Origin: Patescibacteria group bacterium UBA6241
GTDB lineage: Bacteria; Patescibacteriota; Minisyncoccia; Phycocordibacterales; Phycocordibacteraceae
Direction: 5' to 3'
Assembly (NCBI GenBank): GCA_002441425.1
Contig: DJWB01000001.1
Span: 105,653 to 169,652, forward strand
Length of the DNA stretch: 64,000 nt
The notes under the pieces were generated by a model that saw nothing but the letters and a program-made list of their open reading frames with translations, was not told the origin of the DNA and searched no databases. Each line of letters begins with the position of its first letter. The first letter of the stretch is position 1. This document shows positions 24,494 through 44,525 of this stretch, piece by piece. Made by a program: the position numbers and the translations under genes.

Positions 24494-25465
24494 ATGGAAT
24501 CATTCTGGCAAAAGCTGAATAAACCCTTACTTGTACTCGCTCCCATGGCGGACGTAACTGATCCTGCGTACCGCAGGCTTATCGCTGAACACGCGGCCCC
24601 TTCAGTTATGTGGACAGAGTTTGTGTCAGCAGATGGTCTGTACCACACACGAGAGAAGGCAGGCATGAAAGACGAGGAGAATCCGCTTATGCGAGACTTG
24701 CAGTTTGGGGAGCGCGAGCGACCTATTGTTGCGCAGTTGTTTTCGTCCAAGCCCGAGATGATGTCATACGCTGCAAAGCTCTGTGTTGAACTTGGCTTTG
24801 ACGGAATTGATATCAATATGGGATGCCCAGATCGCTCCATTGAAAAGCAGGGATGTGGTGCGGCGATGATTAAGGACCCTGAGAATGCAAAGGCAATTAT
24901 TCGTGCAGCTCGTGAGTCAGGTCTCCCGGTTTCAGTGAAGACACGTATTGGCTACAATCAGGAGAGTATTGATACCTGGATTCCTGAATTACTCTCAGAA
25001 GCACCCGAAGCGCTTACGGTTCATTTGCGTACACGCAAAGAGATGTCAGCAGTCCCTGCGCACTGGGAGTTCATGGAGCGAGTTGTAGCGCTTAGGGATA
25101 CTCATAGTCCCGAAACACTGGTGCTTGGTAATGGAGATGTTAAGTCTCTGGAAGAAGCAAAGCAGAAGGTTAAGGAGACCGGATGCGACGGTGTTATGTT
25201 GGGACGTGCCATCTTCGGAAACCCCTGGCTTTTTACCGGCAGAGACTTCGCTGAAATTTCTCCCGAGGAACGCATTCAGGCACTTCGCACGCTGGCTGAA
25301 TACTTTAGCGAGCTAACGCCTGCAAAGCATTTTCATATTCTTAAAAAGCACTTTAAGGCTTTTATACAGGGCTGGCCTGGTGCTGCAGAGTTACGTTCTG
25401 AACTTATGCAAACAGGAAGCAGGGAAGAGTTGGAGGCAGTGTTGGAGCAACACGGCCTGGTATAA
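24494..25465 (+). CDS. tRNA-dihydrouridine synthase
   Basis: LAPMADVTD, DINMGCP, SVKTRIG, GNGDV, GVMLGR. Confidence 0.95.
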   Translation: MESFWQKLNKPLLVLAPMADVTDPAYRRLIAEHAAPSVMWTEFVSADGLYHTREKAGMKDEENPLMRDLQFGERERPIVAQLFSSKPEMMSYAAKLCVELGFDGIDINMGCPDRSIEKQGCGAAMIKDPENAKAIIRAARESGLPVSVKTRIGYNQESIDTWIPELLSEAPEALTVHLRTRKEMSAVPAHWEFMERVVALRDTHSPETLVLGNGDVKSLEEAKQKVKETGCDGVMLGRAIFGNPWLFTGRDFAEISPEERIQALRTLAEYFSELTPAKHFHILKKHFKAFIQGWPGAAELRSELMQTGSREELEAVLEQHGLV

Positions 25466-25473: not shown

Positions 25474-26508
25474 ATGAGACATCAATCTTTGTATAGAGCG
25501 TATAGGCCACAGGCCTTTAAGGAGGTGGTGGGACAGGACGAAGTCGTGCAGCCGCTCCTTACACAGATTGCAGGAAAGAAAGTAGGGCATGCCTATTTGT
25601 TTGCAGGATCACGAGGTCTTGGAAAGACATCTATCGCACGCATCTTTGCAAAGGAGCTTAACGTGCATGAACGAGATGTATATGAGCTTGATGCAGCTTC
25701 GCATAACGGAGTGGATGAGGTGCGTAGTTTGAATGACAGCATTTACACGCTGCCCTTTGCATCCGAATACAAGGTATACATTCTGGACGAGGCACACATG
25801 CTCTCTAAGGGTGCATGGAATGCGCTCCTAAAGACTCTTGAAGAGCCTCCCCAGCACGTCATTATTATTCTTGCTACTACGGAGCTAGAGAAAGTGCCTG
25901 AGACGGTACGTTCTCGCTGCCAGGTCTTTACGTTTAAGAAGCCTTCACGCTCTGGACTCGCAAAGCTCGTACAGGATGTTGCAAAGAAGGAGGGAGTTAA
26001 AATTGAACCTGCTGCAGCAGAGCTCATAGCACTTCTTGGAGACGGCTCATACAGAGACGCGCTTTCAGTGCTTGAGAAGGCACTGTCTGCAGGAGACGGA
26101 AAGGTGCTTTCAAGAGAGCAGACGGAGCAGGCAACAGGAGCTCCGCGACATGCGCTCGTACACGGACTTGCAGAAGCTGTCTCAACAGGAGATACAGGTA
26201 CTGCACTTAAGACTATTCATGCTGCGCAAGAGGGAAATATTGATATGCAGTTGTATCTAATGCTAGTGCTTGAATACTTCAGACAAATTCTGCTTATACG
26301 GCACGCACCAGAGCTTCAGAAAGAGATACAGGAGGAGTTGGGAGAAGACGCATACAAGGATGCAAAGGTGCTCTCTGATGCAAAAGATTCTTTACTTACA
26401 CATCAAGCTCTGGGCACTTTCCTAGACGCTGCATCTCGTATCAGGTTCTCCCCAGTACCTAGTCTTCCGCTAGAACTTGCAGTGCTCGCCATTTCCAGGC
26501 AGGATTAG
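25474..26508 (+). CDS. dnaX: DNA polymerase III subunit gamma/tau
   Basis: LYRAYRPQ, GSRGLGKTS, ELDAAS, LDEAHML, LLKTLEEPP, SRCQ. Confidence 0.96.
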   Translation: MRHQSLYRAYRPQAFKEVVGQDEVVQPLLTQIAGKKVGHAYLFAGSRGLGKTSIARIFAKELNVHERDVYELDAASHNGVDEVRSLNDSIYTLPFASEYKVYILDEAHMLSKGAWNALLKTLEEPPQHVIIILATTELEKVPETVRSRCQVFTFKKPSRSGLAKLVQDVAKKEGVKIEPAAAELIALLGDGSYRDALSVLEKALSAGDGKVLSREQTEQATGAPRHALVHGLAEAVSTGDTGTALKTIHAAQEGNIDMQLYLMLVLEYFRQILLIRHAPELQKEIQEELGEDAYKDAKVLSDAKDSLLTHQALGTFLDAASRIRFSPVPSLPLELAVLAISRQD

Positions 26509-26513
26509 GGAAT

Positions 26514-26584
26514 TGGGAGATCGTCTAATGGTAGGACAGCGGCCTTTGAAGCCGTGAATCTAGGTTCGATCCCTAGTCTCCCAG
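26514..26584 (+). tRNA. tRNA-Gln(TTG), anchor of the cassette array
   Basis: TGGGAGA/TCTCCCA acceptor stem, anticodon arm gcggc-ctTTGaa-gccgt, GGTTCGATCCC. Confidence 0.95.
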
Positions 26585-26683
26585 CAATAAGAAAGCTCAA
26601 ATAACAAAGCCCCACAACCGCATGATTGGGGGCTCCCGTGACGAAATCGGGCTACGTCTGCTTTTCTTACAGGGATTGAGGAC

Positions 26684-27169
26684 TCAGATGATCCCGTTGA
26701 GAATCTTTACGAGCTGGTCGATCGCTTCTCGCTGTTGGGCATCGTGAGTAACTTCGCAGAGGTCCAGCAAACTATCACAGCCTTCATCACATTGATGTGC
26801 TGAAAGGAACGCCTGACCGATGGCCTGCTTGCCACCGCTAATGCAAATCATGAAGTCACGAATCGGTTCGGAAACGTGGCTCATGACGTGAAGGCTGTAT
26901 CCGAAGGAATCCAGCAACTCTTCTGTGTTGATCGTGACCTCCGTGCCCATTTGCCTGCCAGCATTCTTAGCGGCTGCACCGATTGCATTCTTTACTCTGC
27001 CGACCACGTTCTGAATCAGTCTGGCTTGCTTATGTGCCAAACGTTCTTCATGTGACATCGAAAAAACCATTTCGAGATGAATATCAAGCAACATCGTAAC
27101 GTCCTTGGGAATGAGTTCAGCATCCCTACTGACTGCAGAAGTTGAACACTGCAGTTTGTCCGTGTGCAA
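26684..27169 (-). CDS. hypothetical protein (first cassette)
   Basis: 161 aa ORF; TTGACA promoter next to repeat R1; hairpin at 26608-26634. Confidence 0.65.
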   Translation of the reverse strand: MHTDKLQCSTSAVSRDAELIPKDVTMLLDIHLEMVFSMSHEERLAHKQARLIQNVVGRVKNAIGAAAKNAGRQMGTEVTINTEELLDSFGYSLHVMSHVSEPIRDFMICISGGKQAIGQAFLSAHQCDEGCDSLLDLCEVTHDAQQREAIDQLVKILNGII

Positions 27170-27204
27170 TATGCTTTATTTATATAGATATGTCAAGTAT
27201 AAAA

Positions 27205-27231
27205 GTTCCAACATCGTCCCATACCCCCAGC
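27205..27231 (+). repeat. cassette repeat R1
   Basis: gttccaacatcgtcccatacccccagc. Confidence 0.95.
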
Positions 27232-27248
27232 CAATGTATACTCGTGGT

Positions 27249-27578
27249 ATGCCAACAGCTAACATCTATTTCAGTGGTCAGGATAATGTTGAGGCACTTC
27301 AGGCTCTTATTCCTGACCTTAAGACGTATCTCGCACAGGAACTTTCTTGCAGCGACATTTCCCTCACATCAGAAGAGATTAGCATTCGATTTATTACAAA
27401 TACCGGCCCCAATATGATTGGCGATGTAGAGGTTCAGATATCGGCCCATTCATTCCCAGAACGCATTCAAAAGCAGGATCAAGTATGTCTCGACGTAATG
27501 AAATGGCTCCAAGATCGAACTGAGGTAAAGAACATTAAGGTCTGGCTTCAGCTCTCTAAGCTAGGACATAGTTGGTAG
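27249..27578 (+). CDS. hypothetical protein, possible tautomerase/MIF fold
   Basis: Met-Pro start, 109 aa; TATACT just upstream of ATG. Confidence 0.55.
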   Translation: MPTANIYFSGQDNVEALQALIPDLKTYLAQELSCSDISLTSEEISIRFITNTGPNMIGDVEVQISAHSFPERIQKQDQVCLDVMKWLQDRTEVKNIKVWLQLSKLGHSW

Positions 27579-27654
27579 GTTCGTTAATCTTAAGCAGTTT
27601 CGTGCAGATTTGACATAGTAAGTTTTAGTGATAAAAATCATTCGGAGGTGCGAA

Positions 27655-28020
27655 ATGGCAACAATCCTTATTGTCGAAGATACGCCGCTATACCAGCGAG
27701 GGTATCAAAGGGAGCTCGCAGAGCATACCTTGATCATCGCAGGGACTTCGGCTGTCGCCCGGGCTGAATTCGCCCGAATGCAGCATACGATCGATATCAT
27801 CATCCTCGATGGTGAGCTCGCTTCGATGGACCCCGAACGGGACACTGTCGATATGGCGAGCGACTTCCGTGCCGCAGGCTTTACGGGTCCGATGATCGCT
27901 GCGAGCAGCAACCCGTACATCATGAACCAGCTCATGGAGAAGAATCGGTGCTCGCACCGAGCCAGCCCCAAGTCTGATGTCCAAGACCTGGTCAACCAGA
28001 TCCTCGAGAACCGCCCTTAA
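27655..28020 (+). CDS. stand-alone response regulator receiver domain
   Basis: ILIVED...IIILDG...MIAASS...K; GGAGG RBS. Confidence 0.8.
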   Translation: MATILIVEDTPLYQRGYQRELAEHTLIIAGTSAVARAEFARMQHTIDIIILDGELASMDPERDTVDMASDFRAAGFTGPMIAASSNPYIMNQLMEKNRCSHRASPKSDVQDLVNQILENRP

Positions 28021-28056
28021 CCGAGCGGTTTTTCATTTACCGAAAGACTCAGAAGG

Positions 28057-28083
28057 GTTCCAACATCGTCCCAGACTGCCAGC
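28057..28083 (+). repeat. cassette repeat R2
   Basis: gttccaacatcgtcccagactgccagc. Confidence 0.95.
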
Positions 28084-28104
28084 AACTTTGGTACACTTAT
28101 TTGT

Positions 28105-28521
28105 ATGGAGAAAATAGACGAGCAAATTCTACTCACAGAGAGCTTTGATGTGCATCAGGATTGGGAAACCCCAATACCAGGATTTTATATAGTCGCATCG
28201 AGAGATCTCTCCAAAAAGTCTGTCGCAGATTTTACTGACGCTGAATCAGTTGAACTAGCGCTCCTTCTTAAGCGAGTAAGAAAAGCGATGAGTGAAGCTC
28301 TGGGTATAGAGGTTGTGTACTTTTTTGAGAACGAAGATACGGAGCATAGTTTTCATTTCTGGATGTTTCCACGACATGCATGGATGAATCAGTTTGGACC
28401 AAAGGTTCAGTCAATACGGCCAATTATTGAATTCGCTCGACAAACTATGGCAACTCAAGAAACTCTGGCTGAGGTTAAGGAGGCGGCAGAAAAGATGCGA
28501 CTTGTCCTAAAGGAGGGATAA
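28105..28521 (+). CDS. HIT-family hydrolase
   Basis: PIPGFYIV and HSFHFWMFPRH motif. Confidence 0.8.
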   Translation: MEKIDEQILLTESFDVHQDWETPIPGFYIVASRDLSKKSVADFTDAESVELALLLKRVRKAMSEALGIEVVYFFENEDTEHSFHFWMFPRHAWMNQFGPKVQSIRPIIEFARQTMATQETLAEVKEAAEKMRLVLKEG

Positions 28522-28526
28522 AATAG

Positions 28527-28553
28527 GTTCCAACATCGTCCCACACAGCCAGC
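28527..28553 (+). repeat. cassette repeat R3
   Basis: gttccaacatcgtcccacacagccagc. Confidence 0.95.
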
Positions 28554-28706
28554 ATTATTGACAAGCATGTTTATTGTTTGTATTGTACAAACTTAGTTCT
28601 TTGAACACGTTCGCCACAACGCAGGGCACCCTATTTTTAGGATTCTGTGCGCTGTGGCGAATCTGAGATCAGGTTTGTTTGAACGGCGCTGTAAAACCAC
28701 TCAGCA

Positions 28707-29165
28707 ATGGAGTTTCCTATGAGTGAACAACAGTCCTTCCGCGGTCAGGTGGATCGCATGCTGGGACAAATCGTCACCCACGGTCGCCATCTCGAAGGAT
28801 GGACGTCTGAGGATCGGCAGTGGGTGATCGAATATCCGGTTCCGGCCCTCATACTCTTCGCGAAGGCGGTCAGAGAGCGGGATTCAATTCGGGAACCAAA
28901 GCCCGGTGCGGTCGACCTCCTGATCAAGGACGTCTTCACTGTTGAGAAGGCGGGACAGATTGGATCCACGAGTAATGCCAACGCTCGGGTTCTCAATCTG
29001 ACGGAAGAACGTCCGCTCGGTGCCCTTGGGCCGATCAAGACACTCGGCGAGCTAGCCGGGTACCGAGAGAACGTTTTGAGACACGAGCCTAATATGGGAG
29101 ACCAGACCATCTCCTACATCAAGGCCGTCTTGGCAGAGCATGGTCTCAGTTTAAGTTCGCAATAA
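28707..29165 (+). CDS. protein with RNA polymerase alpha-CTD-like domain
   Basis: C-terminal IKTLGELAGYRENVLRHEPNMGDQTISYIKAVLAEHGLSL fits alpha-CTD pattern. Confidence 0.65.
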   Translation: MEFPMSEQQSFRGQVDRMLGQIVTHGRHLEGWTSEDRQWVIEYPVPALILFAKAVRERDSIREPKPGAVDLLIKDVFTVEKAGQIGSTSNANARVLNLTEERPLGALGPIKTLGELAGYRENVLRHEPNMGDQTISYIKAVLAEHGLSLSSQ

Positions 29166-29222
29166 GATCATCATGGGCTGTCTGTTTCCGAAAGGGAATG
29201 GCGGCCCTTTTACTTAATAAAA

Positions 29223-29249
29223 GTTCCAACATCGTCCCACACACCCAGC
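29223..29249 (+). repeat. cassette repeat R4
   Basis: gttccaacatcgtcccacacacccagc. Confidence 0.95.
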
Positions 29250-29284
29250 TATAAAAAAACCGCCCACGGCTCTTGAGGCGGTTG

Positions 29285-29626
29285 TTACGGCTTGGTCAGT
29301 TCTTCAAGAACGATATCGAGGACCGTTGTTCTCAGCCATTTCTCGAAAGTGGCTGGGTTAAAAAGGTAAGTCGGTTCTATATTGCCGGGCTCGATCTTCC
29401 TTGAAATGGTTGTTCGTGTCCAGATACCCATCATGCCGTTGGCAGGGAAGTAAACCAGAGATAAACAGAACCAAGGATGTCCTTCCCTTGTTCCCTCTAT
29501 GTCATACCGGAGGTAGTACTTTTCCTTTTCGTTACCGGACTCTATCTCAACATCGCAACATAGAGGCTCTGCGAAGTGAGACAAAATAGTCAGAAGCGAG
29601 TCAGGACCTTCAAGATCTGTCGTCAT
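29285..29626 (-). CDS. hypothetical protein
   Basis: AGGAG RBS before ATG 29626; terminator-like hairpin 29254-29283. Confidence 0.65.
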   Translation of the reverse strand: MTTDLEGPDSLLTILSHFAEPLCCDVEIESGNEKEKYYLRYDIEGTREGHPWFCLSLVYFPANGMMGIWTRTTISRKIEPGNIEPTYLFNPATFEKWLRTTVLDIVLEELTKP

Positions 29627-29677
29627 GTGCGACTCCTGTAGCGAATCTAGACAGAACCTACCACATGCTGAAGAAAG

Positions 29678-29704
29678 GTTCCAACATCGTCCCACACAGC
29701 CAGC
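29678..29704 (+). repeat. cassette repeat R5
   Basis: gttccaacatcgtcccacacagccagc (identical to R3, R6). Confidence 0.95.
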
Positions 29705-29724
29705 AGAGGTTGTATAATAGTTGC

Positions 29725-30120
29725 ATGAAGAATTCTTTTGGAATGAGGCCTCCTGCTAGGAACGAGCGCCCAGTTTCTGAAGCAAGAGAAATAACCCCAG
29801 CCCAGGTTCCTGATTTCGTTAAATCAGAGTTTAAGAGACTGAGAGATCAAATACTCCAAGAATCCGATGGCGCAGAACTGAAGGATAAGAAAGGATTGGT
29901 GGAGAATCTAGAAGATGGGGTCGAGCGTTATATTTTAGTTAATGAATTGCGAGACTCAGATACCCGGGCACATACTCAAGCCAGCCCATTTATGAATTTG
30001 ACTCCAAGCGGAACGTATAAGGAAATACACATGATTGTGGACGTAAAGAACGGAACTATAACTAAGTCCGAAATGAATAGAAACCCCGATCCCTCATGGT
30101 TCTCTATGAGGTATAGCTAA
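29725..30120 (+). CDS. hypothetical protein
   Basis: TATAAT just upstream of ATG; stop 4 nt before R6. Confidence 0.7.
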   Translation: MKNSFGMRPPARNERPVSEAREITPAQVPDFVKSEFKRLRDQILQESDGAELKDKKGLVENLEDGVERYILVNELRDSDTRAHTQASPFMNLTPSGTYKEIHMIVDVKNGTITKSEMNRNPDPSWFSMRYS

Positions 30121-30124
30121 GAAG

Positions 30125-30151
30125 GTTCCAACATCGTCCCACACAGCCAGC
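30125..30151 (+). repeat. cassette repeat R6
   Basis: gttccaacatcgtcccacacagccagc. Confidence 0.95.
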
Positions 30152-30172
30152 AACGAATGCTACACTTTTGTC

Positions 30173-30631
30173 ATGCGAACTGTTGAACGAGAGATCGCCT
30201 CTGCGCTCATCTTCTCAAAAGACGGGAAGCTCCTGCAGGTTAAGAATGCTGAACCTGTGCACGGAGTGTATGGAGAATGTTGGGTTATACCTGGCGGCGG
30301 TCTCGAAGAGGGAGAGACAGTGGAAGAGGCCGTGGTACGCGAAGTGATGGAGGAAGTCGGTCTAGATATCTCTTCTTCTCCGAAGGAATTAGTATGGACA
30401 GGCAACGGGGAATCGACCCGGATCCTCAAAGATACGGGCGAGGAGGTGCTCGTAAAGATGCGCTTCAACAACTTTAAAGTTCAGCTTGAAGAGAACGCAG
30501 AAGATATCCAGCTTACGTTTGGTGACGAACACCATGTGCATATATGGACCGATGTATCTGAGCTGAAGAACATGAGCCTCTCTCGACCATCTATAGAATG
30601 CCTGACTGAGCTTGGTTATTTACCGAGCTGA
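30173..30631 (+). CDS. NUDIX hydrolase
   Basis: Nudix box GGGLEEGETVEEAVVREVMEEVG. Confidence 0.92.
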   Translation: MRTVEREIASALIFSKDGKLLQVKNAEPVHGVYGECWVIPGGGLEEGETVEEAVVREVMEEVGLDISSSPKELVWTGNGESTRILKDTGEEVLVKMRFNNFKVQLEENAEDIQLTFGDEHHVHIWTDVSELKNMSLSRPSIECLTELGYLPS

Positions 30632-30636
30632 TTCTG

Positions 30637-30663
30637 GTTCCAACATCGTCCCAGACTGCCAGC
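30637..30663 (+). repeat. cassette repeat R7
   Basis: gttccaacatcgtcccagactgccagc (identical to R2). Confidence 0.95.
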
Positions 30664-30685
30664 CATCTATGTTAGGATTGGTTGA

Positions 30686-31018
30686 ATGAATAAGAATGGA
30701 TCGACTCGAGCTTGGTTCGTCATGTTTAGTCTGACAGCTATTGCTCTTGCAATCCCTCTCACAAATCTCAGCCTCTTACTTTCTGGAATATATAACGAGC
30801 CCGGGTATTCAGATGGAACTGTTTCGAGCCCAACCGAGATAGCATTCCTAACTGTTGCCATACTCGTGCCAATTGGAGTGACGGTTAGTGTGATTATGAC
30901 TCAGTGGAAGCGCTCTGTGGCATGGGGTGTGCTTGGTGTAATGATCTCATTTGCTCCTGTGCTTCTAGCAGCAATTATTGCGGCCGCTGCTATCATCTCT
31001 CGGGCTCTGTTCTCTTGA
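30686..31018 (+). CDS. three-TM membrane hypothetical protein
   Basis: Three hydrophobic segments; fills R7-R8 interval. Confidence 0.7.
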   Translation: MNKNGSTRAWFVMFSLTAIALAIPLTNLSLLLSGIYNEPGYSDGTVSSPTEIAFLTVAILVPIGVTVSVIMTQWKRSVAWGVLGVMISFAPVLLAAIIAAAAIISRALFS

Positions 31019-31026
31019 GTGTAAGG

Positions 31027-31053
31027 GTTTCAACATCGTCCCACACCCCCAGC
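31027..31053 (+). repeat. cassette repeat R8
   Basis: gtttcaacatcgtcccacacccccagc. Confidence 0.93.
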
Positions 31054-31119
31054 CTGTAAGAGAAAACCCGCCAACAACTAAGAGACGGGAATCTCATTGT
31101 TGCAGCGGGTCGCGTTTGT

Positions 31120-31503
31120 TTAGTAGATATGAGGTGCGACGAAATAGCGGATGGACACGCGGCCTTGCTCGCCCGGTTCGTCGATCGTGATGATGACGTT
31201 GTCTTTCCAGACAGAGCGCAGCACCTCAACTGCTGCCGCAACCTGTTTGTAGTTGCGGAGGCCAGGGAGGTTGTAGCCGTAGCGGTCTGAGTACTTTCCG
31301 TACATCAAAAGCACCTCGATGACCTGCTGCTCCCTGACGAATCGGCGCAGGCTGGTGTTCTCTGGAGGAATGGCCTCCAGAAGGGCAGTTGCGAGTCTCG
31401 CTTCAGCCTCAGCCTGATCTTGTCGTTGTCGCTCGAACTCAGAGAGAGTGCGGATTCGATCGCTCAGCGCTGACGCTAAACGAAAAGGATCGAGATTGTT
31501 CAC
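31120..31503 (-). CDS. hypothetical protein
   Basis: GGGAG RBS, GTG start, TTGACT promoter next to R9; hairpin near 31065-31111. Confidence 0.65.
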   Translation of the reverse strand: MNNLDPFRLASALSDRIRTLSEFERQRQDQAEAEARLATALLEAIPPENTSLRRFVREQQVIEVLLMYGKYSDRYGYNLPGLRNYKQVAAAVEVLRSVWKDNVIITIDEPGEQGRVSIRYFVAPHIY

Positions 31504-31575
31504 GGTTCTTCTCCCAATAACCTAGTGAGGAATATACTATTTAAATTCTATTTAGTCAACAGATCCTGCAGAAAG

Positions 31576-31602
31576 GTTCCAACATCGTCCCAGACAGCAA
31601 AC
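31576..31602 (+). repeat. cassette repeat R9
   Basis: gttccaacatcgtcccagacagcaaac. Confidence 0.93.
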
Positions 31603-31627
31603 ACTAAAGAATGCCATAATCAGTAAT

Positions 31628-32077
31628 ATGTATTACATATACAAAGAAATGCAGCCAGGCGAACAAGAAATAGTTCGTGGGATGATACATAGTTTTTACG
31701 CAACCGATCCAGATATGGGCGCAATAACAGACGAGAAGATTAATCGTACTTTTAGTGAGTTTTCAAAGCATCCAGAGAAAGGTTTTGTATATGTAATAAA
31801 GGACGACCAACAGATTGTTGGCTACAGCATACTTGTGAACTTTTGGAGCAATGAGGCGGGAGGAAATATCATTGATATTGACGAGTTGTTCGTAGAAGAG
31901 AGCGAGCGAGGAAAGGGAGTGGGAACAAATTTCATTAAGCACATTATAGAAAGTCGTCTGAACGAATGTGTCGCTGTTGAACTAGGGGTCATAGCAGGGA
32001 ATGACAGAGCACAAAGACTTTATGAGCGAATAGGGTTTAGGCTCTCCACTAACCGTCGCCTAATATATGATTTCTAA
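31628..32077 (+). CDS. GNAT acetyltransferase
   Basis: IDELFVEESERGKGVG, N..AQRLYERIGF. Confidence 0.9.
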   Translation: MYYIYKEMQPGEQEIVRGMIHSFYATDPDMGAITDEKINRTFSEFSKHPEKGFVYVIKDDQQIVGYSILVNFWSNEAGGNIIDIDELFVEESERGKGVGTNFIKHIIESRLNECVAVELGVIAGNDRAQRLYERIGFRLSTNRRLIYDF

Positions 32078-32087
32078 CCTGACTAGG

Positions 32088-32114
32088 TTTCTAACAACGT
32101 CTCAGACTGCCAGC
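32088..32114 (+). repeat. cassette repeat R10 (diverged)
   Basis: tttctaacaacgtctcagactgccagc. Confidence 0.85.
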
Positions 32115-32135
32115 TAATTTTGATACACTTCTTGC

Positions 32136-32810
32136 ATGAATTCTGTACTTATAACTGGAGCAGGCAGAGGAATAGGCAAAGAACTGTCTCTGAGATTTCT
32201 CGGTGCTGGGTATCGGGTGTGGGGAACTACAACATCGGGAGATGCTGATTTCTCGCACGAGAATCTTCAAATGCTACAGCTCGATCTCCGTTCACCAGAG
32301 AGCATAAAGACATGCGTGCAGGAATTAATTAGTTCCGGCGAACGATTCGATATTGCAGTTAACAATGCAGGGGCGCTCCTTGATGAGAACGAAAAGACCC
32401 TCAAGACAGATCTCCTACGCCAAACACTAGAGATAAACCTTATTGGAACTTCGGATTTTACAGAGCAAGTTTTACCTCTTGTGAATAAAGGAGGGCACAT
32501 TGTTATGGTGTCGTCTTCTGCTGGATCAGTTGGAAGGACTGGCAATGTAGTAAGCCGATATCCATCACAGTATCCCGCGTACAAGATCTCAAAGGCTGCA
32601 CTTAACATGTATATGCGTACACTTGCCGTTCGATTGAAGGATAAGGACATTACGGTGTCTTCTGTCCATCCTGGATGGGCCAGGACTGATATGGGAGGTG
32701 AAGAGGCATCAATCTCAGCGGAGGAAGCTGCCGACACTGTTTACAAGGTAGCCATATCTAGACCAGAGACTGGTCACTTCTGGTATTCAGAAGGAGAATT
32801 GCCTTGGTAG
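32136..32810 (+). CDS. short-chain dehydrogenase/reductase
   Basis: TGAGRGIG, NNAG, YKISK, VHPGW. Confidence 0.93.
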   Translation: MNSVLITGAGRGIGKELSLRFLGAGYRVWGTTTSGDADFSHENLQMLQLDLRSPESIKTCVQELISSGERFDIAVNNAGALLDENEKTLKTDLLRQTLEINLIGTSDFTEQVLPLVNKGGHIVMVSSSAGSVGRTGNVVSRYPSQYPAYKISKAALNMYMRTLAVRLKDKDITVSSVHPGWARTDMGGEEASISAEEAADTVYKVAISRPETGHFWYSEGELPW

Positions 32811-32813
32811 AAA

Positions 32814-32840
32814 GTTCCAACGTCGTTCTAGGCCGTCAGC
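32814..32840 (+). repeat. cassette repeat R11 (diverged)
   Basis: gttccaacgtcgttctaggccgtcagc. Confidence 0.8.
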
Positions 32841-32867
32841 TCATAAAATTCATGCTAAATTTCTCTC

Positions 32868-33413
32868 ATGATTAAAATCACTTACTTTGTCCACGGAACA
32901 ACTGTAGACAATCAGAATGAGATCTCCTCCGGCTGGTCTGACGCCCCTCTATCCGAGTTAGGTATTCAGCAGTCAAAAGATCTTAAGGAGCAAACTAAGG
33001 ATAAGCATTTTGATGTAGTGTTTTGTTCTGACCTGCAACGCGCTCGCATGTCTGCAGAACTTGCTTGGGGCAGTATGTACGAGATTATTCCCGATGCTCG
33101 TCTTCGTGAATGTAACTATGGCGAGCTGAATGGAAGAGCATCTGAAATTGTAGAGCCGCTGCAAGAGAAGGAAATGCATTTCAAGGCATTTCCGGGTGGG
33201 GAGAGTTATGAGGATGTGAAGAATCGTGTTGCTGACTTCCTTGATTTCCTCAAAGAAAATTATGATGGCAAGCACGTAGCGCTAGTGGGTCATAAGGCAC
33301 CCCAGCTTGCACTTGATGTCCTTATCAAAGGAGTAACCTGGGACGAGGCTCTCGCGAATGATTGGCGTAAGACTAAGTCTTGGAAACCAGGCTGGGAATA
33401 CCAACTAATCTAG
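32868..33413 (+). CDS. histidine phosphatase family protein
   Basis: FVHGTT, SDLQRA, RLRECNYG, GGES, LVGH. Confidence 0.88.
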   Translation: MIKITYFVHGTTVDNQNEISSGWSDAPLSELGIQQSKDLKEQTKDKHFDVVFCSDLQRARMSAELAWGSMYEIIPDARLRECNYGELNGRASEIVEPLQEKEMHFKAFPGGESYEDVKNRVADFLDFLKENYDGKHVALVGHKAPQLALDVLIKGVTWDEALANDWRKTKSWKPGWEYQLI

Positions 33414-33421
33414 TTAAACAG

Positions 33422-33448
33422 GTTCCAACATCGTCCCACACCCCCAGC
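33422..33448 (+). repeat. cassette repeat R12
   Basis: gttccaacatcgtcccacacccccagc. Confidence 0.95.
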
Positions 33449-33472
33449 CAATAAAATTGTTATAGTTTATGT

Positions 33473-34042
33473 ATGACTTATATTCTTCATGGAGGATTTG
33501 AACGGGAAGATAACGAGTTAAATAGAAGCTTCTATCAAGAAGTTCTGAAAGGCGTTTCTGATAATGGAACACTTCTTCTTGTTCACTTTGCTTCAACTCA
33601 CTCTCCAGAAGAGGTGAAAGAAACACACGAACTCCAGGAGAAAAGGATGCAAAGCCTTACGAACAAACATATAAATGTTGAGTTCGCGACCGAAGAAGAT
33701 TTCTTAAATCAAGTGGAGCACGCGGATGCAATTCACATGCGAGGAGGACATACACCGAAATTGCTTTCAGTCCTGAAAAACTATCCGGAACTTGCAGCTA
33801 TGTTCTCAAACAAAACTATTTCTGGATCTTCAGCCGGAGCTTATGCATTGGCAAAATATGGACCCGGGCATTCAGAAGAGGGAATACGTGAAGGTTTGGG
33901 TCTTGTTCCTATTAGATTGGCCTGTCATTACGAAAGTCTAGAGTTACCTCCTGATTCTGAGTCACTTACTGAACTTAAAGCTATGGCGACAGAACTGGAA
34001 CTTGTAACATTGAGAGATTTTGAGTGGCGCGTATTCAATTAA
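33473..34042 (+). CDS. peptidase E (S51) / class I glutamine amidotransferase-like
   Basis: HMRGGHT, GSSAGA, GLGLV, CHY. Confidence 0.8.
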   Translation: MTYILHGGFEREDNELNRSFYQEVLKGVSDNGTLLLVHFASTHSPEEVKETHELQEKRMQSLTNKHINVEFATEEDFLNQVEHADAIHMRGGHTPKLLSVLKNYPELAAMFSNKTISGSSAGAYALAKYGPGHSEEGIREGLGLVPIRLACHYESLELPPDSESLTELKAMATELELVTLRDFEWRVFN

Positions 34043-34043
34043 G

Positions 34044-34070
34044 GTTCCAACGTCATCTCACACCGCCAAC
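34044..34070 (+). repeat. cassette repeat R13 (diverged)
   Basis: gttccaacgtcatctcacaccgccaac. Confidence 0.85.
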
Positions 34071-34093
34071 AACTTCATGCTACGGTACTGAGT

Positions 34094-34546
34094 ATGAGAA
34101 GAGTTTCAGTAAGAGGTATCGCCCTACACGAAGGGAAACTTCTGTGCGTTAAATTGAAGCCGTATAACAAGATGGCTGCATCAGGAGGTGATTGGCGATG
34201 TCTTCCGGGAGGAACAGTTGAAGAAGGAGAATCATTGAATGTAGCTCTTATGCGGGAGATGTACGAGGAGACTGGCGTAAGTCCGGAAATAGGGAAACTA
34301 TTGTATGTTCATCAGTTTCTATTTGAGGAAAGTGACCAGCTTGAATTTTTCTTTCATATTGCTAATCCGGGTGACTATCTAGAAATAGACCTAGAGAACA
34401 CAACGCACGGATTACATGAGATCGAGAGTATTGATTTCGTAGACCCAAAAGAAACATTTATTCTCCCTATATTTCTTTCTCAGGAGACTTTAAAGAACCA
34501 AATCGAATCAAATGCACCGGTTAAAATATTTTCCTTTGCAAAGTAG
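34094..34546 (+). CDS. NUDIX hydrolase
   Basis: LPGGTVEEGESLNVALMREMYEETG. Confidence 0.92.
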   Translation: MRRVSVRGIALHEGKLLCVKLKPYNKMAASGGDWRCLPGGTVEEGESLNVALMREMYEETGVSPEIGKLLYVHQFLFEESDQLEFFFHIANPGDYLEIDLENTTHGLHEIESIDFVDPKETFILPIFLSQETLKNQIESNAPVKIFSFAK

Positions 34547-34568
34547 GTCAGAGGATGGTTAATAAAAA

Positions 34569-34595
34569 GTTCCAACATCGTCCCAGACTGGCAAC
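34569..34595 (+). repeat. cassette repeat R14
   Basis: gttccaacatcgtcccagactggcaac. Confidence 0.92.
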
Positions 34596-34641
34596 AAATA
34601 AAAACTGCCTAAAACCTTTCGGTCTTCGGCAGTTTGAGAGT

Positions 34642-34812
34642 TCATTCAGAATTGGCTGCGTCAGCTCTGCGTCGCTCGTCAGTCAATTCATCAAAATTTT
34701 TTGAGCTGAGTCGCCGATAGAGCGCATGCCGCTCATGTGGGTCTCTGTCTACATTGTTGGGGTGATCCAGAATTTCTTCAAGAGTTCTGAATCCTGAAGA
34801 TTGCTCGTGCAT
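34642..34812 (-). CDS. 56-aa small protein (not in ORF track)
   Basis: MHEQSSGFRTLEEILDHPNNVDRDPHERHALYRRLSSKNFDELTDERRRADAANSE; GGGAG RBS; hairpin aaactgcc...ggcagttt downstream. Confidence 0.55.
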   Translation of the reverse strand: MHEQSSGFRTLEEILDHPNNVDRDPHERHALYRRLSSKNFDELTDERRRADAANSE

Positions 34813-34859
34813 GAGATAGGTCTCCCTTCTGGACAGAACCTAACACGGACTGCATATAC

Positions 34860-34886
34860 GTTCGAGCGTCGCCCAATACTACTAGA
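34860..34886 (+). repeat. probable degenerate repeat R15
   Basis: gttcgagcgtcgcccaatactactaga; intergenic between divergent ORFs. Confidence 0.45.
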
Positions 34887-34958
34887 CATGAAAATGGACA
34901 AGGAGCTATTTTATTGTATGGTGCTAGCAGAGAGACAATTAGCCAGGAGGGCTAGCAG

Positions 34959-35708
34959 ATGTACCAACCAACACAGCCGCTACTGTTCTCCTGGATTCAT
35001 GAAGGTGAATACCCGGGAGGAGACTACACCTTTTTACACAGTAATGGCTCATATGTACGAATTGAGGACTGGAAGAAACGGTATAAGGACACAAAGGAGA
35101 AACCGGCTATCCCATTCAGATTCACCGTGCGTGACCGCACATTCATTGGCCACATAACCGACGAATGTCTGGTATCGCGCATAACTGAGTATCTGCAGGA
35201 TTACTACGGTAAGCGTTACACCAACTGCTCCGCGTTCGCTCACTTCCTGACTACCGGCACGTTTATAGAGTGCGACGAAGAACAGAGCCTCGTTGTGCTT
35301 ACGCAGGACATGGCTCAGTACCGAGGCGAGACTATTCGTGTCGGGGATATGCTTTGCGTAATCTATGCGAATGATCGCCTTTGGCGGTCTCGCAAGGTGT
35401 CGCACCGCAAAAGTTACTTGCGTGCCAAGAAGAAACGGAGAGGTACGCACGAGTTCACTCACGGGTTACCTCCAAGAAAGAGGATTCTCTCCGCGAAGGG
35501 TATCCGGGAACTCTGCGCGAGTGTTCTCGCTGATGATTATCACTTTCTTGTCTGCGTCGCTAAAGACGCCGCCGGGCCGGTATGGCTTGCTCAAGGTGGA
35601 CGCTACGCACCGGGTGACGAACCTAGTCCGCTGGTGTTCACGGTGGGGAACAATGATGGATACGATAATGTAGTACCTCTCCTTGCGCTCCTTAAAAGAC
35701 GTAGATGA
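34959..35708 (+). CDS. hypothetical protein
   Basis: 249 aa, AGGAGG RBS; TNCSAFAHF and DYHF may be a Cys/His pair; downstream hairpin. Confidence 0.65.
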   Translation: MYQPTQPLLFSWIHEGEYPGGDYTFLHSNGSYVRIEDWKKRYKDTKEKPAIPFRFTVRDRTFIGHITDECLVSRITEYLQDYYGKRYTNCSAFAHFLTTGTFIECDEEQSLVVLTQDMAQYRGETIRVGDMLCVIYANDRLWRSRKVSHRKSYLRAKKKRRGTHEFTHGLPPRKRILSAKGIRELCASVLADDYHFLVCVAKDAAGPVWLAQGGRYAPGDEPSPLVFTVGNNDGYDNVVPLLALLKRRR

Positions 35709-35763
35709 TCCCGGCTCTACACTTCAACGCCCGCGGCATTTATGTCGTGGGTGTTTCATTTTA

Positions 35764-35790
35764 AGTTCAGCATCGCTCCAGGCGGTCAGT
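35764..35790 (+). repeat. degenerate repeat R16
   Basis: agttcagcatcgctccaggcggtcagt; closest to R11; followed by TATACT and ATG like other cassettes. Confidence 0.6.
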
Positions 35791-35811
35791 TTATGGGTAT
35801 ATACTCTGCAT

Positions 35812-36816
35812 ATGTCAGCAATAGAACTTGTAAGAGTCTCTACTCCGGAAGATTGGGAGCAATATCACAGCATTAGAGAAAAAGTTTTATTTGAGAACAA
35901 GAACCGGTCTTATGATCGGACTCATGCTGATGAACACCGGCCTAACAATGTGCCATTTCTGCTAAAGAAGGACGGACTAGGTATAGCGACCACAAGACTA
36001 GATCTTCGTCCTGACACCCAAGCGGCTATTATCCGTCTAGTTGCTGTAGTTGAGTCTGAGCAACGAAAAGGGTATGGACGTGCTCTACAAGCAAAAATAG
36101 ATGAATATGCACGTTCTCAAGGCGTAAAAAGGCTTCTCGTTAATGCTGCCCCCGATGCTATTGGTTTCTATAAAAAGATCGGTTTTGTGCCGGAATCGTG
36201 GGACCCAGAAGAACTCACAGGAATATCTAAGGATTCCGTTCAGTTGTCTAAAGCATTGTTACCCATGACTGAAAAGGAAATACTTGAGCTAATCAAGAAC
36301 GACGAGTGGATGATGTCTATTCTTAGGGTAGCTCGTAGCCTTAATCTGCCGGATTGGATAATTGGTGCAGGATTCGTAAGAAACAAAGTTTGGGATCATC
36401 TACACGGGTATACGGAACGCACCCCTTTAGCTGATATAGATTTGATTTACTTTGATCCAGCTCATATAGATGAGTCACAAGAAAAAGAGTATGACCAAAG
36501 GCTACATCAATTAGTTGATGTTCAATGGTCTACAAAGAATCAAGCACGCATGCATGTAATAAATGGAAACGCACCATTTACCTCTGCAGAAGACGGATTG
36601 GCGCATTGGATTGAAACTCCAACATGTACTGGAGTAACGTTGCTAGACAACGACACTCTGCAATTAATTGCACCCTACGGGATAGAGGACCTTGTGCACT
36701 TGCGAGTGAGACCAGTTAACCCAGAGAAAGATATTACGCTTTATAGAGAGCGGGTAACAAAAAAGAAATGGAAGGAAACTTGGCCAAGACTAGAAATCTT
36801 AGAGACCAGAGCATAA
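35812..36816 (+). CDS. GNAT acetyltransferase fused to DUF925-type nucleotidyltransferase
   Basis: N-half RLVAV..QRKGYG..AIGFYKKIGF; C-half LPDWIIGAGFVRNKVWD, DIDLIYFD, KNQARMH, APYG. Confidence 0.85.
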   Translation: MSAIELVRVSTPEDWEQYHSIREKVLFENKNRSYDRTHADEHRPNNVPFLLKKDGLGIATTRLDLRPDTQAAIIRLVAVVESEQRKGYGRALQAKIDEYARSQGVKRLLVNAAPDAIGFYKKIGFVPESWDPEELTGISKDSVQLSKALLPMTEKEILELIKNDEWMMSILRVARSLNLPDWIIGAGFVRNKVWDHLHGYTERTPLADIDLIYFDPAHIDESQEKEYDQRLHQLVDVQWSTKNQARMHVINGNAPFTSAEDGLAHWIETPTCTGVTLLDNDTLQLIAPYGIEDLVHLRVRPVNPEKDITLYRERVTKKKWKETWPRLEILETRA

Positions 36817-36832
36817 TCAGCGAGAACAAACT

Positions 36833-37132
36833 CTACTGCATACTTACTAGTATGAGCATGCTGATTGTTAGCACAGCAAATACCCCTAGTGTCTTTAAAA
36901 AGTAGGACACGGCTTCAGCTCTCCTATTTTCTATAAGCAGTGCAACTGGTTGATAGAAAAACAGGAAGGCCATAACAGCTACAGAGAGCACCAGCAGAGA
37001 AATTACTCCCACGCCGTCTAGAAATGTGTCTGGTGTGTCGTGACGAAGTGATTCAATAAACTGCATAAACAGCGCTATGGCGCTTATATACAGGGCTGCT
37101 GCTACTGCATTCAATACGGGATTCCATTTCAT
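36833..37132 (-). CDS. small membrane protein
   Basis: Three TM segments, 99 aa. Confidence 0.7.
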   Translation of the reverse strand: MKWNPVLNAVAAALYISAIALFMQFIESLRHDTPDTFLDGVGVISLLVLSVAVMAFLFFYQPVALLIENRRAEAVSYFLKTLGVFAVLTISMLILVSMQ

Positions 37133-37198
37133 ATAACTAGTATAACGGCGCAGCGCCTACCTTAGTTGCTTGCTGCTTGGCCGCGATATACTACACGC

Positions 37199-37630
37199 AT
37201 GAAAAAGGGAGAGGATTATGTGGGCGTTACCCTAAGCTTCTTCTGCCATGATGGAAAAGGAAACTTTATACTATCTAAACGCAGTGCAAATTGTCGTGAC
37301 GAGCACGGACGATGGGATTTCGGAGGAGGGGGATTAGATCTGCACGAGACAGTAGAAAATCAGCTACGCAGGGAAATAAAGGAGGAACTCTGTACGGATG
37401 TACTTGAATACGAGTTTCTCGGATATCGGGATGTGCACCGAGAGCATGAAGGAAAGAAGACACACTGGGTATCTTTGGACTTTAAAGTACTGATAGATCC
37501 TTCTCAGGTTAAGAATGGAGAGCCACACAAGTTTGATGAAATAGCATGGTTTAGACTGGACGCTCTTCCTGAGCCACTACATTCTCAGGCTCCTTTGGAG
37601 GTCGCCCTGTATAAGGCACAGCTTTCATAA
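37199..37630 (+). CDS. NUDIX hydrolase
   Basis: GGGGLDLHETVENQLRREIKEE; GEPHKF. Confidence 0.88.
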   Translation: MKKGEDYVGVTLSFFCHDGKGNFILSKRSANCRDEHGRWDFGGGGLDLHETVENQLRREIKEELCTDVLEYEFLGYRDVHREHEGKKTHWVSLDFKVLIDPSQVKNGEPHKFDEIAWFRLDALPEPLHSQAPLEVALYKAQLS

Positions 37631-37706
37631 GAGAATCTTGCAGAAATTGACTTTAATTTCTGCATCTATATAGTCAAAAAACCTAAAACACCGAGTCGGA
37701 GGGTTA

Positions 37707-38030
37707 ATGGTAGATGCTCTTTTAGTACTGGTGTATCTGGGCTTTGCGACCTCTGCGATATCAGTAACGCTTACGAGATCGGATATTACTCGCGAGCCGC
37801 GTCAGTGGCTCAAAGAGAAAGTCCCGTCTCTCGCAGGCCTTATTCATTGCCCATACTGCACTAGCCACTGGGTCGCCATGGTGCTTGTCCTGTTCTACAA
37901 GCCCGTTGTGGTTGACCTGTTTCTCCCCATTGATCTCGCCGTCTCCGTTATGGGCGTCGTAGGGATTGCCGGGGTCGTCTCAGGGATCTTGATTACAAAG
38001 ATCCCCTCGCTTGGAAGGAAGGAAGACTGA
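37707..38030 (+). CDS. membrane protein (DUF1360-like)
   Basis: TM helices with CPYCTSHWVA; GGAGG RBS. Confidence 0.65.
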   Translation: MVDALLVLVYLGFATSAISVTLTRSDITREPRQWLKEKVPSLAGLIHCPYCTSHWVAMVLVLFYKPVVVDLFLPIDLAVSVMGVVGIAGVVSGILITKIPSLGRKED

Positions 38031-38232
38031 AATGCCGAAATGGGTTCCGAGATGCCCGATCTTTTGGATGCTGGTCATCATCATCGCCGTGAGCATCGGC
38101 GTGTGGCGGTGTAGTTCCGGATAAGGGATAACTTCCCACGAATACTTTTTAAGCCGCCGGAAGAATTGGCGGCTTTTTACTTTGTGAACACAAATAAATC
38201 TTGCCGTTTAGTATGCGATATACTTTATTCAT

Positions 38233-38571
38233 ATGAAATTCTTTGTAACCTACCAAATGCCCCATACGGGAATGGACGAGTGGATGAAAATCCCAGAAGA
38301 AGAGCGAAAAGTACAAGAACAGCAAATGCAGTCTGAATGGAATGCGTGGATGGGAGACCACAAGGACTCGCTAACTGAAAGTGCTGGTGTTGGAAAACCA
38401 AAGCGAATCACCGCAAAGGGAACTGAAGACGCTCGCAACGACATTATGATGTACTCATTTGTTGAGGCCACTACGCTTGAAGAGGCAGCAGAGATATTTA
38501 AAGATCATCCACACTTTGGCATTCCAGGTGCGTGGATAGAAGTGATGTCCGTAAATAAGAATATCGGCTAA
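38233..38571 (+). CDS. YCII-like hypothetical protein
   Basis: YSFVEATTLEEAAEIFKDHPHF...IEV. Confidence 0.65.
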   Translation: MKFFVTYQMPHTGMDEWMKIPEEERKVQEQQMQSEWNAWMGDHKDSLTESAGVGKPKRITAKGTEDARNDIMMYSFVEATTLEEAAEIFKDHPHFGIPGAWIEVMSVNKNIG

Positions 38572-38587
38572 GTAGTAGCAGATACGC

Positions 38588-38935
38588 ATGTCCTACAAGT
38601 TAACGAAGTCTGCGGATCTTCCAAAGAAGGAGAAGTACGAAATGGAGATCCGTATCTTGCCTGAGATTGGGAATTGCAATGTCATTACCGCTGAAACAGA
38701 AACCGGACACAATCAGGAGTTTTATGACACTGAATCAACCTTCCACTACATCATAGTGAGCGGGTCCGGAAGCTTTTTCCTTGATGATAAGGAAGTCCCT
38801 GTTTCTGAAGGCGACTATCTTTCGATAGAACCAAAGACAAGAATCTATTACAAAGGCCGTATGCGTCTTGTGCTAATAACAAATCCTCCCTGGCGGCAGG
38901 AGAATGAGGTTGAGACAAGATCCAAGATTTGGTAA
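38588..38935 (+). CDS. cupin domain protein
   Basis: GHNQEFY...YIIVSGSG...GDYLSIEP. Confidence 0.75.
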   Translation: MSYKLTKSADLPKKEKYEMEIRILPEIGNCNVITAETETGHNQEFYDTESTFHYIIVSGSGSFFLDDKEVPVSEGDYLSIEPKTRIYYKGRMRLVLITNPPWRQENEVETRSKIW

Positions 38936-38942
38936 ACGGCGT

Positions 38943-39347: not shown

Positions 39348-39398
39348 CGCCTCTCAACAGACTCCTCATACCCACTTCACAAGGCGCATGAGATAGTT

Positions 39399-40061: not shown

Positions 40062-40063
40062 CT

Positions 40064-40959: not shown

Positions 40960-40962
40960 CGT

Positions 40963-42198: not shown

Positions 42199-42230
42199 CT
42201 CTTATCAAGATGCCCTAAATGCGTTAGGGT

Positions 42231-43724: not shown

Positions 43725-43730
43725 TCTCAT

Positions 43731-43973: not shown

Positions 43974-44053
43974 TATTGTGCACTGTACCCAGTTGTCAGC
44001 TTCATGAAGCGGGCTACTATTATCTATACGTTATTCATCACAAACGATTATCT

Positions 44054-44476: not shown

Positions 44477-44490
44477 CACCATCATGACTT

Positions 44491-44525
44491 CATGAAGAAA
44501 GGACCGCACGGGTCCTTTCTTCATG
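44491..44525. terminator. intrinsic terminator hairpin
   Basis: catgaagaaaggacc-gcacg-ggtcctttcttcatg perfect 15-bp stem. Confidence 0.8.

Follow-up and report, generated by a model that had tools for sequence, protein, structure and literature searches.

The DNA analysed here, which we refer to as the window, is a stretch of 64,000 nucleotides from a 686-kb genome that is assembled in five contigs. A protein of another genome in the genus is labelled Candidatus Paceibacterota, which makes the organism a CPR bacterium. Pfam analysis gives the gene order dus (24494-25465) and dnaX (25474-26508), followed directly by a plus-strand tRNA-Gln(TTG) gene (26514..26585) that is recognized by both ARAGORN and Rfam. 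This tRNA gene is the anchor of an array of 14 repeats, each 27 bp long and all on the plus strand, that extends from 27205 to 34595 and is unique within the genome; a pattern search for the repeat yielded 13 matches versus 0.08 expected. The repeats end in CCAGC in 10 and in CAGC in 11 of the 14 copies, with CCCAGC present in R1, R4, R8 and R12, the four copies that the initial annotation of this locus had listed. Cassette units of 390-852 bp make up the array, each closed by one repeat and with the start of a gene close behind the core, as we call the short block in which the repeat ends.

R1 (27205..27231), a putative attP-type half-site, forms the distal end of cassette 1, which holds a minus-strand ORF (26684-27169). 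The unit ending with R2 (28057..28083) contains two ORFs (27249-27578 and 27628-28020), the latter weakly response-regulator-like. An ORF also precedes each of R3 (28527..28553; ORF 28105-28521), R4 (29223..29249; ORF 28707-29165), R5 (29678..29704; minus-strand ORF ending at 29285), R6 (30125..30151; ORF ending at 30120), R8 (31027..31053; ORF 30686-31018) and R9 (31576..31602; minus-strand ORF 31120-31503). The remaining units carry a NUDIX gene (30173-30631) before R7 (30637..30663), a GNAT gene (31628-32077) before the decayed R10 (32088..32114), a short-chain dehydrogenase gene (32136-32810) before the decayed R11 (32814..32840), a histidine phosphatase gene (32868-33413) before R12 (33422..33448), a peptidase S51 gene (33473-34042) before the decayed R13 (34044..34070) and a second NUDIX gene (34094-34546) before R14 (34569..34595), which is the last clear repeat. 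Pfam matches over the cut-off among the 15 cassette ORFs that were scanned comprise NUDIX (twice), GNAT, short-chain dehydrogenase and histidine phosphatase, the sixth being peptidase S51. A possible 15th repeat on the plus strand (34860..34886) is strongly decayed, with a profile score of 10.8 that is near background. Past the last clear repeat, small accessory genes go on without recognizable repeats (window positions 34959-40959) and include GNAT and nucleotidyltransferase in one ORF, NUDIX, cupins, an OmdA-like gene and MsrA; this region is possibly an older, eroded part of the array. By eye, extended -10-like boxes (TG-n-TA-n-n-n-T) occur 8-20 bases past most repeats, before plus-strand cassette genes, which suggests that each cassette may bring its own promoter.

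The end of the tRNA gene, to which the initial annotation had drawn attention, does carry CCAGC at 26581-26585, and the minus strand from 26584 to 26573 does read L-G-D-stop. We interpret the 22-nt tRNA 3' arm from the T-loop GTTC to C74 (26564..26585, plus strand) as a putative attB-type half-site, with its last four bases CAGC (26582..26585, plus strand) being the core that would hold the crossover, most likely with CA (26582-26583) as central dinucleotide. The minus-strand L-G-D-stop (26573..26584) would be the tail of a convergent large serine recombinase (LSR) gene if one were integrated here; such a gene is absent from this genome. In the same minus-strand register 10 of the 14 repeats read xxVWDDVGT, in keeping with the L-G/A-V-W-D-D-V-G-T reading of the initial annotation, with WDDVET in one copy and a stop at W in three decayed ones. 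When tRNA ends are compared with the inner 11 nt of the repeat, tRNA-Gln(TTG) is equal at 9 of 11 positions and is the best of the 35 tRNAs with a GTTCRA loop that were scored out of 38 found. The runners-up are Gln(CTG) with 7 and Trp with 6, all others having 5 or fewer, and Gln(CTG) and Trp tRNAs are the other common targets of the close LSR clade. On these scores, the match between the tRNA and the repeat, which extends further than the initial annotation had noted, is not attributable to chance. Additionally, both arms start with GTTC, located at -22 in the tRNA and at -27 in the repeat, which amounts to a 5-bp shift. The zinc-domain motif of serine integrases occupies positions 16-24 in attP and 11-19 in attB as described by Rutherford et al. 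2013 (PMC3783163), and setting the G of GTTC at 24 and 19 by that count would put the central dinucleotide on CA at -4/-3.

An exact 17-mer of the repeat occurs in 60 of 259 family genomes, 37 of which also have a PF07508 match, and a close relative of the cognate LSR (E below 1e-130) is present in 6 of 222 genus genomes. The LSR cognate to the repeats is absent from the genome studied here (G000) and rare in the genus, thus most arrays are orphans. The recombinase that had been predicted, convergent on tRNA-Gln and ending LGD*, is found in relatives (L193, L327). For example, the same locus in contig G150:C19 of the same genus has the order serS-ftsQ-(dus)-dnaX-tRNA-Gln(TTG) and, behind the tRNA, a 490-aa LSR that converges on it and ends TFSEMLGD*. 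The LSR has PF00239, PF07508 and PF13408 domains over the cut-off, a profile match to SPbeta SprA (E 1.8e-27, positions 6-458) and a long helix pair (coiled coil) that is present in both AlphaFold models. Among 33 LSR loci checked, 32 have a C-terminal match, and GTTC or a one-base variant stands at -22 in 30 of these 32, the anchors with this fixed register being tRNA-Gln, Trp, Ser and Ile as well as non-tRNA anchors. In 21 of the 23 loci with enough sequence, a same-strand repeat-like arm follows the element on its far side, where the initial annotation had expected it. The arm scores at least 17 in 18 loci, taking the real arm of L325 at 7.6 kb, and scores of just 10-11, close to background, were obtained for three of the 21; outside the array, 1.37 million G000 positions contain 2 matches scoring at least 15. 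No far-end arm was found in 13.8 kb at L195, which has a broken LSR, or in 4.7 kb at L430, and whole arrays of 10, 6, 4 and 13 repeats are present in L194, L214, L324 and L424, respectively.

The genes adjoining the LSR add to this picture of the elements. Fourteen proteins were scanned, of which one is an LSR, ten are rolling-circle Reps and three are element ORFs without a match or host proteins; a rolling-circle Rep adjoins the LSR in 11 of 11 such neighbour genes scanned from Rep-type elements. The Rep families are Viral_Rep with helicase, Phage_CRI and REP_ORF2-G2P, and no Rep adjoins the LSR in L216. In the closest LSR clade (L324, L194, L214, L325, L330, L404), the LSR is accompanied by a circovirus-like Rep that combines Viral_Rep with a helicase, and in sister clades by inovirus-like Reps. 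A conserved ORF of ~290 aa is present in L324, L214, L330 and L404, with no Pfam match in the three that were scanned. We also observe one conserved non-coding element start after the core in L198, L203, L194, L041 and L428, occurring at tRNA-Gln(TTG), tRNA-Gln(CTG) and several repeats. Larger prophage-like islands (L198, L199, L200, L203, L205, L207) have a different, 440-aa LSR that is located 1-5 kb from the tRNA and does not overlap it.

Comparison of the two ends of the islands defines the core. When the tRNA end is set against the first far-end arm in 16 islands that are anchored on a tRNA, the two are equal at -4 and -3 in all 16, which are the two positions of the putative central dinucleotide, and at -2 and -1 in 15, while position -5 agrees in 7 islands and +1 in 8; the single exception at -2 and -1 is a spurious score-10 match in L325, the real arm of which ends in CAGC. 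The shared block is exactly 4 nt in 8 of the 16 islands, and the core follows the target tRNA, being CAGC for Gln, CCGC for Trp and Ser, and GCAC for Ile. This agreement would place the crossover in tRNA nucleotides 71-74, the only block that is always common to both ends. The initial annotation had located it in (C)CCAGC, and the crossover does fall inside that block, but the conserved core is the 4-nt CAGC, one base narrower. Across 165 internal repeats of relatives, conservation is 86-94% at -5 to -1, A is present in 73-76% at +1/+2 and conservation is ~50% or less beyond, which bears out the earlier observation that similarity between copies stops after the core. To the right of the core, no column exceeds ~50% beyond +3 in either these 165 repeats or the 57 tRNA-end look-alikes described below. 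As far as these alignments go, only one half-site is conserved, which is unusual among LSRs. Among 47 internal repeats from tRNA-anchored arrays, 98-100% have a base other than that of the tRNA at -12 and -9, and 68% do so at -6. The longest exact piece of the tRNA in 26591-45000 is 10 nt and derives from the anticodon region; there is thus no 3' duplication, as had been stated. An Islander-type island was considered and rejected on this finding and on the lack of a PF00589 gene near the array.

Three cassettes have homologs in arrays of other genomes, which are 82% identical for the GNAT gene of cassette 10 (G022 array), 92% for the histidine phosphatase of cassette 12 (between repeats of the G064 array) and 76% for the NUDIX gene of cassette 14 (G117 array). 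Cassette 12 and its G064 homolog have different neighbours on the upstream side, and their alignment begins just behind the upstream core and takes in the downstream repeat. Cassette 10 exhibits the same border behaviour; the borders of cassette 14 are less clear as the G117 arm is decayed. Consequently, each repeat belongs to the unit on its tRNA side, which upholds the proposal that a repeat is the distal junction of one unit. Repeat score declines away from the anchor (rho -0.33, n=155, with kin that are not independent).

Most arrays of relatives start not at tRNAs but at 22-nt look-alikes of the tRNA-Gln end that have a sharp left edge at GTTC. The fetched loci contain 57 look-alikes with 5 or fewer mismatches, and none is present in G000. 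At least two look-alike matches occur in 25 of 60 repeat-positive genomes versus 3 of 199 others, counts in which kin are not independent, and 32 of 52 look-alikes start -1 to +10 bases from a stop codon. LSR elements are located on look-alikes in L194, L214, L324 and L424. In many genomes look-alikes head arrays behind the stop codons of the same core genes (L024-L036, L254-L293, L424), which we take to be an M23 peptidase gene after gltX, alaS, ychF, a pilC-like gene, pgk and mraY. Look-alike variants tend to be shared within one genome, with up to 11 matches per genome. The idea that look-alikes are chimeras with the repeat of their own array was rejected, as agreement in the aggregate of 39 arrays is 3.90 of 6 positions versus 3.87 for shuffled pairs and 4.85 for the tRNA; a few LSR-adjacent look-alikes (L411, L424) seem repeat-like, unlike this aggregate.

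An attachment site inside the LSR gene, with integration changing the C-terminus, is encountered in relatives and not in this genome. The tails of the best 120 of 2696 homologs fall into several groups: 59 continue into tRNA antisense, 29 end within four residues, 9 are repeat-type by rule and 13 are of other kinds, including one that is repeat-type by eye, which leaves 10 without a placement. A FastTree phylogeny was built from 108 bodies with tails removed, leaving out 12 rows (ten that lack the anchor motif and two shorter than 400 aa). It requires 9 changes to account for the 10 repeat-type tails versus a shuffled mean of 9.7, which indicates that the tail is a state rather than a lineage trait. 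For example, P0054 and P0121 have 16 differences over 489 residues (97% identical), none of which is among the last 80. Immediately behind the core codon the two part, with AVWDDVRTCLKN in one and tRNA antisense in the other, the repeat-type tail of the pair beginning AVWDDVRT. Similarly, L327 reads LGD* at the tRNA and LGVWYDVGTFM at the far-end arm in the same frame. LGD*, the integrated tail foreseen in the initial annotation, is only one among many integrated tails, so that the swap looks like the loss of a conserved tail and not like an exchange between two designed tails. One repeat-type protein, P0007, is encoded on a 347-kb contig, so that at least one such protein probably belongs to a displaced chromosomal copy; the repeat-type proteins, which are known as protein sequences, may represent circles, displaced copies or assembly chimeras. 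At the level of sequence, the tail swap is established.

The repeats themselves retain a coding signature. In the frame of the gene, all 21 far-end arms can be read for 12 codons or longer without a stop, with a fixed W that is partly imposed by the profile with which the arms were detected. Of the single changes among 226 repeats, 47% are synonymous in the LSR frame versus 25% expected, as compared to 19% and 26% in the other minus frames; the bias is also seen in one plus frame with the same wobble positions (40% versus 28%) and may reflect DNA contacts. The two codons beyond GT are hydrophobic in 83% and 90% of the 226 repeats. The swap is positioned after the last zinc-domain hairpin. AlphaFold gave the repeat-coded tail a pLDDT below 50 with a mixed-tail alignment, while an alignment without read-through tails (39 rows picked by the analyst, 10 repeat-type and 29 short) gave a single helix at 485-500 over the junction at 489/490 with a pLDDT of 85-87. 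In one of the two models, therefore, the repeat-coded tail is predicted to be the second half of the last helix, and as this helix follows the last zinc-domain hairpin, both forms would keep the canonical fold.

The two LSRs that G000 does possess are 32% and 26% identical to the cognate enzyme and are located at tRNA-Glu and tRNA-Asn. The LSR at tRNA-Glu (L002) is flanked by a perfect inverted repeat (contig G000:C4, ~267713-267855 and 269325-269453) that consists of ~129 bp of its own 3' end, as counted by eye. The first copy runs into tRNA-Glu with the tail VSFCDLTGNRTPI*, and the other runs into an element-type arm, with GTTC shifted 6 bp and the tail VSFCEELLTLARTHFENT*. Read from its letters, this second copy is a spare inverted uncut site, and the contigs contain no inversion joints at the inverted repeat. 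The second LSR (G000:C4 294797-296380 and beyond) is convergent on tRNA-Asn, has the tail PVLLRGQDSNLRPID* and heads an island with ORFs that appear restriction-modification-like by eye; a look for the far-end arm of this island did not reveal one.

Circle junctions and other hosts were also searched for. No circle junction was seen in four contig sets from one sample with a depth of ~3; two joints listed on window contigs have sides below 30 nt and derive from the repeats of other arrays. Among 401 genomes of the order there is no LSR gene joined to a repeat, the single match to the junction pattern being a plain repeat in an island. Viral contigs contain no repeat-core junction and one distant LSR only. 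Their 17-mer matches were rejected as relatives of the repeat, as 118 of 120 lie inside one long phage ORF family with the motif WDDVGTF[DN]G and constitute a coincidence. This widespread ORF (L043-L162), from a family that is presumably DNA-methylase-like, has WDDVGTF in mid-gene encoded by the same 17 bases as the repeat, and so forms a trap for pattern searches.

We hold with high confidence that the sites, the enzyme family, the crossover and the tail swap, taken together, are as described above. The wider reading, that the tRNA-Gln arm and the repeats are half-sites of an LSR whose integration swaps half of the last helix and possibly acts as an activity switch, we consider probable. As the LSR gene ends across the 4-base core and two tails occur, integration likely replaces the second half of the predicted last helix. 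In the mechanism that we propose, a circle would recombine at CA within CAGC, leaving the tRNA intact with only ~2 bases from the incomer. The tRNA arm would remain a usable target, hence newcomers would push older units outward, and the far end of each newcomer would be marked by a single repeat. The majority of units in this array would be one-gene cassettes without an LSR that were moved by the enzyme in trans or are eroded elements. On the circle, the gene would encode a tail of the form x-x-x-W-D-D-V-G/R-T with two hydrophobic residues behind it, which would complete the last helix, while the integrated gene would stop (LGD*) or run into tRNA antisense. That the swap is a functional switch of activity has a slight edge in our judgement, and on balance we favour a circle form that would be competent for integration and an integrated form that would be weaker or altered. 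Such repeated use of an attL-type junction as a target would be non-canonical.

Each part of this mechanism has competing explanations. The tail swap could be a neutral by-product of an attachment site in the last codons, with both forms behaving alike. The change does lie beyond the last canonical zinc-domain strand, integrated tails range freely from 3 to more than 50 residues, the tail has a pLDDT below 50 in the first AlphaFold model, and the WDDV(G/R)T codons double as a DNA site so that their conservation needs no protein role. This account has more difficulty with the synonymous bias, with the hydrophobic nature of two codons that the tightly conserved DNA motif does not cover, with the uninterrupted frame of every one of the 21 far-end arms over 12 codons or longer, with the confident helix over the junction in the second AlphaFold model and with the precedent of Mx8, in which such a swap can alter integrase behaviour according to PMC6070905. 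We give it real but limited credence. Somewhat unlikely in our view, although compatible with the main junction mechanism, is that the cassettes are not mobile by themselves and instead represent eroded full LSR elements that accumulated at the tRNA and from which the recombinase and Rep were deleted. The same cassette is found with the same borders beside other neighbours in other species, the units are tight (390-852 bp, with a gene close behind the core) and only 1 of 226 repeats is followed by even a weak match to an LSR remnant; erosion would be consistent with LSR 3'-end remnants after few repeats (a weak profile match in L268, E 0.19, and L194 by eye), with the LSR-tail coding signature kept by every repeat and with the 15 islands without integration module that PMC3146451 describes in Dehalococcoides arrays.

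Different origins of the array as a whole are far less probable. A true integron or other tyrosine-recombinase array, with LSR islands merely sharing the tRNA hot spot, would explain the integron-like look of one-gene cassettes with NUDIX and GNAT cargo and the absence of the cognate LSR from most array-bearing genomes. We consider it extremely improbable, as the same repeat closes LSR islands and encodes the LSR tail in frame, and the core follows the target tRNA of the LSR. Additionally, an attC hairpin was rejected since 3 of the 14 repeats, folded on both strands, did no better than shuffles (z +0.95 to +1.78), and an IntI beside an attI was rejected since the sole PF00589 match in the genome lies on another contig (C2). 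We likewise attach next to no weight to a crossover at the T-loop GTTC in which the incoming DNA would supply the tRNA 3' end anew, as is described for Dehalococcoides ssrA islands and for tyrosine-integrase islands. GTTC does begin both the repeat and the tRNA arm, and the look-alikes do have their sharp left edge there; such a crossover, however, predicts ~20 nt of displaced tRNA end per far junction, whereas the repeats differ at -12, -9 and -6 and the block shared by the islands is 4 nt at the tip. A CRISPR array was also rejected, as the units are 390-852 bp with genes and Rfam matches the tRNA only.

Beyond this locus we tentatively propose a widespread LSR family of CPR bacteria that would use the universal T-loop motif of tRNA genes as outer site, cut within the last four bases, require one specific half-site and, without a separate directionality factor, regulate its direction or activity through a helix gained on the circle and lost upon integration; it would serve its hosts as a serine-recombinase integron. 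The same reading, which we offer as conjecture of similar standing, would give up to ~10 extra 22-nt landing pads per genome right after stop codons. The system would account for gain of accessory genes by ultra-small CPR genomes without integrons, in a form that tools seeking tRNA-fragment duplications or tyrosine integrases would miss. For gene stacking in genome engineering, it would also be useful to have an LSR family that switches between tRNAs by a short variable core, accepts any sequence on one side and can insert repeatedly at a single site. A targeted literature search on CPR returned no description of the system, and the supplements of TIGER-type and LSR-mining papers could list such elements.

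There are several known systems with which the array can be compared. Integrons contain ordered one-gene cassettes, with the newest nearest the anchor. The array here shares such ordered one-gene cassettes and similar cargo, but has no attC-like hairpin, no adjacent tyrosine integrase and the site geometry of an LSR. In the composite islands of the staphylococcal cassette chromosome (Ccr), LSRs have assembled cassettes in tandem at the 3' end of a single conserved gene, with a protein-coding target, two recombinases together in CcrAB and multi-kilobase units. The array is likewise built of LSR-type tandem cassettes at the 3' end of one gene, and differs in its tRNA target and units of 390-852 bp. 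Among phage LSRs, Listeria LI/A118 and SPbeta SprA have the same catalytic, recombinase and zinc-ribbon domains with a coiled coil, and an outer motif shifted 5 bp between site types, as set out in PMC3783163; in contrast, here one half-site is conserved, a product junction is seemingly reused and tRNA tips are targeted. The Islander paper (PMC4383910) states that serine integrases were not known to target tRNA genes. Tycheposons, 27 of 937 of which have a large serine recombinase, are similar in that new elements push older ones outward from the tRNA and replication genes are often present, but they mostly use tyrosine integrases and have partial tRNA copies between elements, and the excerpted text of the preprint describes no integrase tail swap (bioRxiv 10.1101/2020.12.28.424599).

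The closest parallels concern the enzyme. Phage Mx8 also has attP inside its integrase gene, and integration gives a new 3' end that changes specificity (PMC6070905); it differs in being a full temperate phage with an integrase listed among tyrosine integrases and with no cassette array in the accounts of PMC6070905 and PMC4383910, and the change here involves ~10-15 residues of a predicted terminal helix. The Dehalococcoides ssrA islands (McMurdie et al. 2011, PMC3146451) resemble the array in having a reverse-strand LSR overlapping a tRNA-like gene and tandem islands, many of which lack an integration module. As described there, these islands are inserted in the tmRNA T-loop with a 20-bp direct repeat of the 3' end, and their module consists of six genes, one of which encodes a second serine recombinase (DsiA). 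In contrast, the array here targets the last four bases of a tRNA without leaving a duplicate of the tRNA end, is associated with a module of LSR plus rolling-circle Rep, consists mostly of single-gene units and has an identified, conserved circle-side tail. Despite similar working, the array is not a member of the ssrA-island, Islander-type or integron classes. According to PMC3146451, the 3' end of the DsiB gene always overlaps attL, and its authors suggested that full function may be found only on the circle. With natural 97%-identical enzymes bearing either tail, and with sites resolved to four bases, that suggestion becomes a clean experiment.
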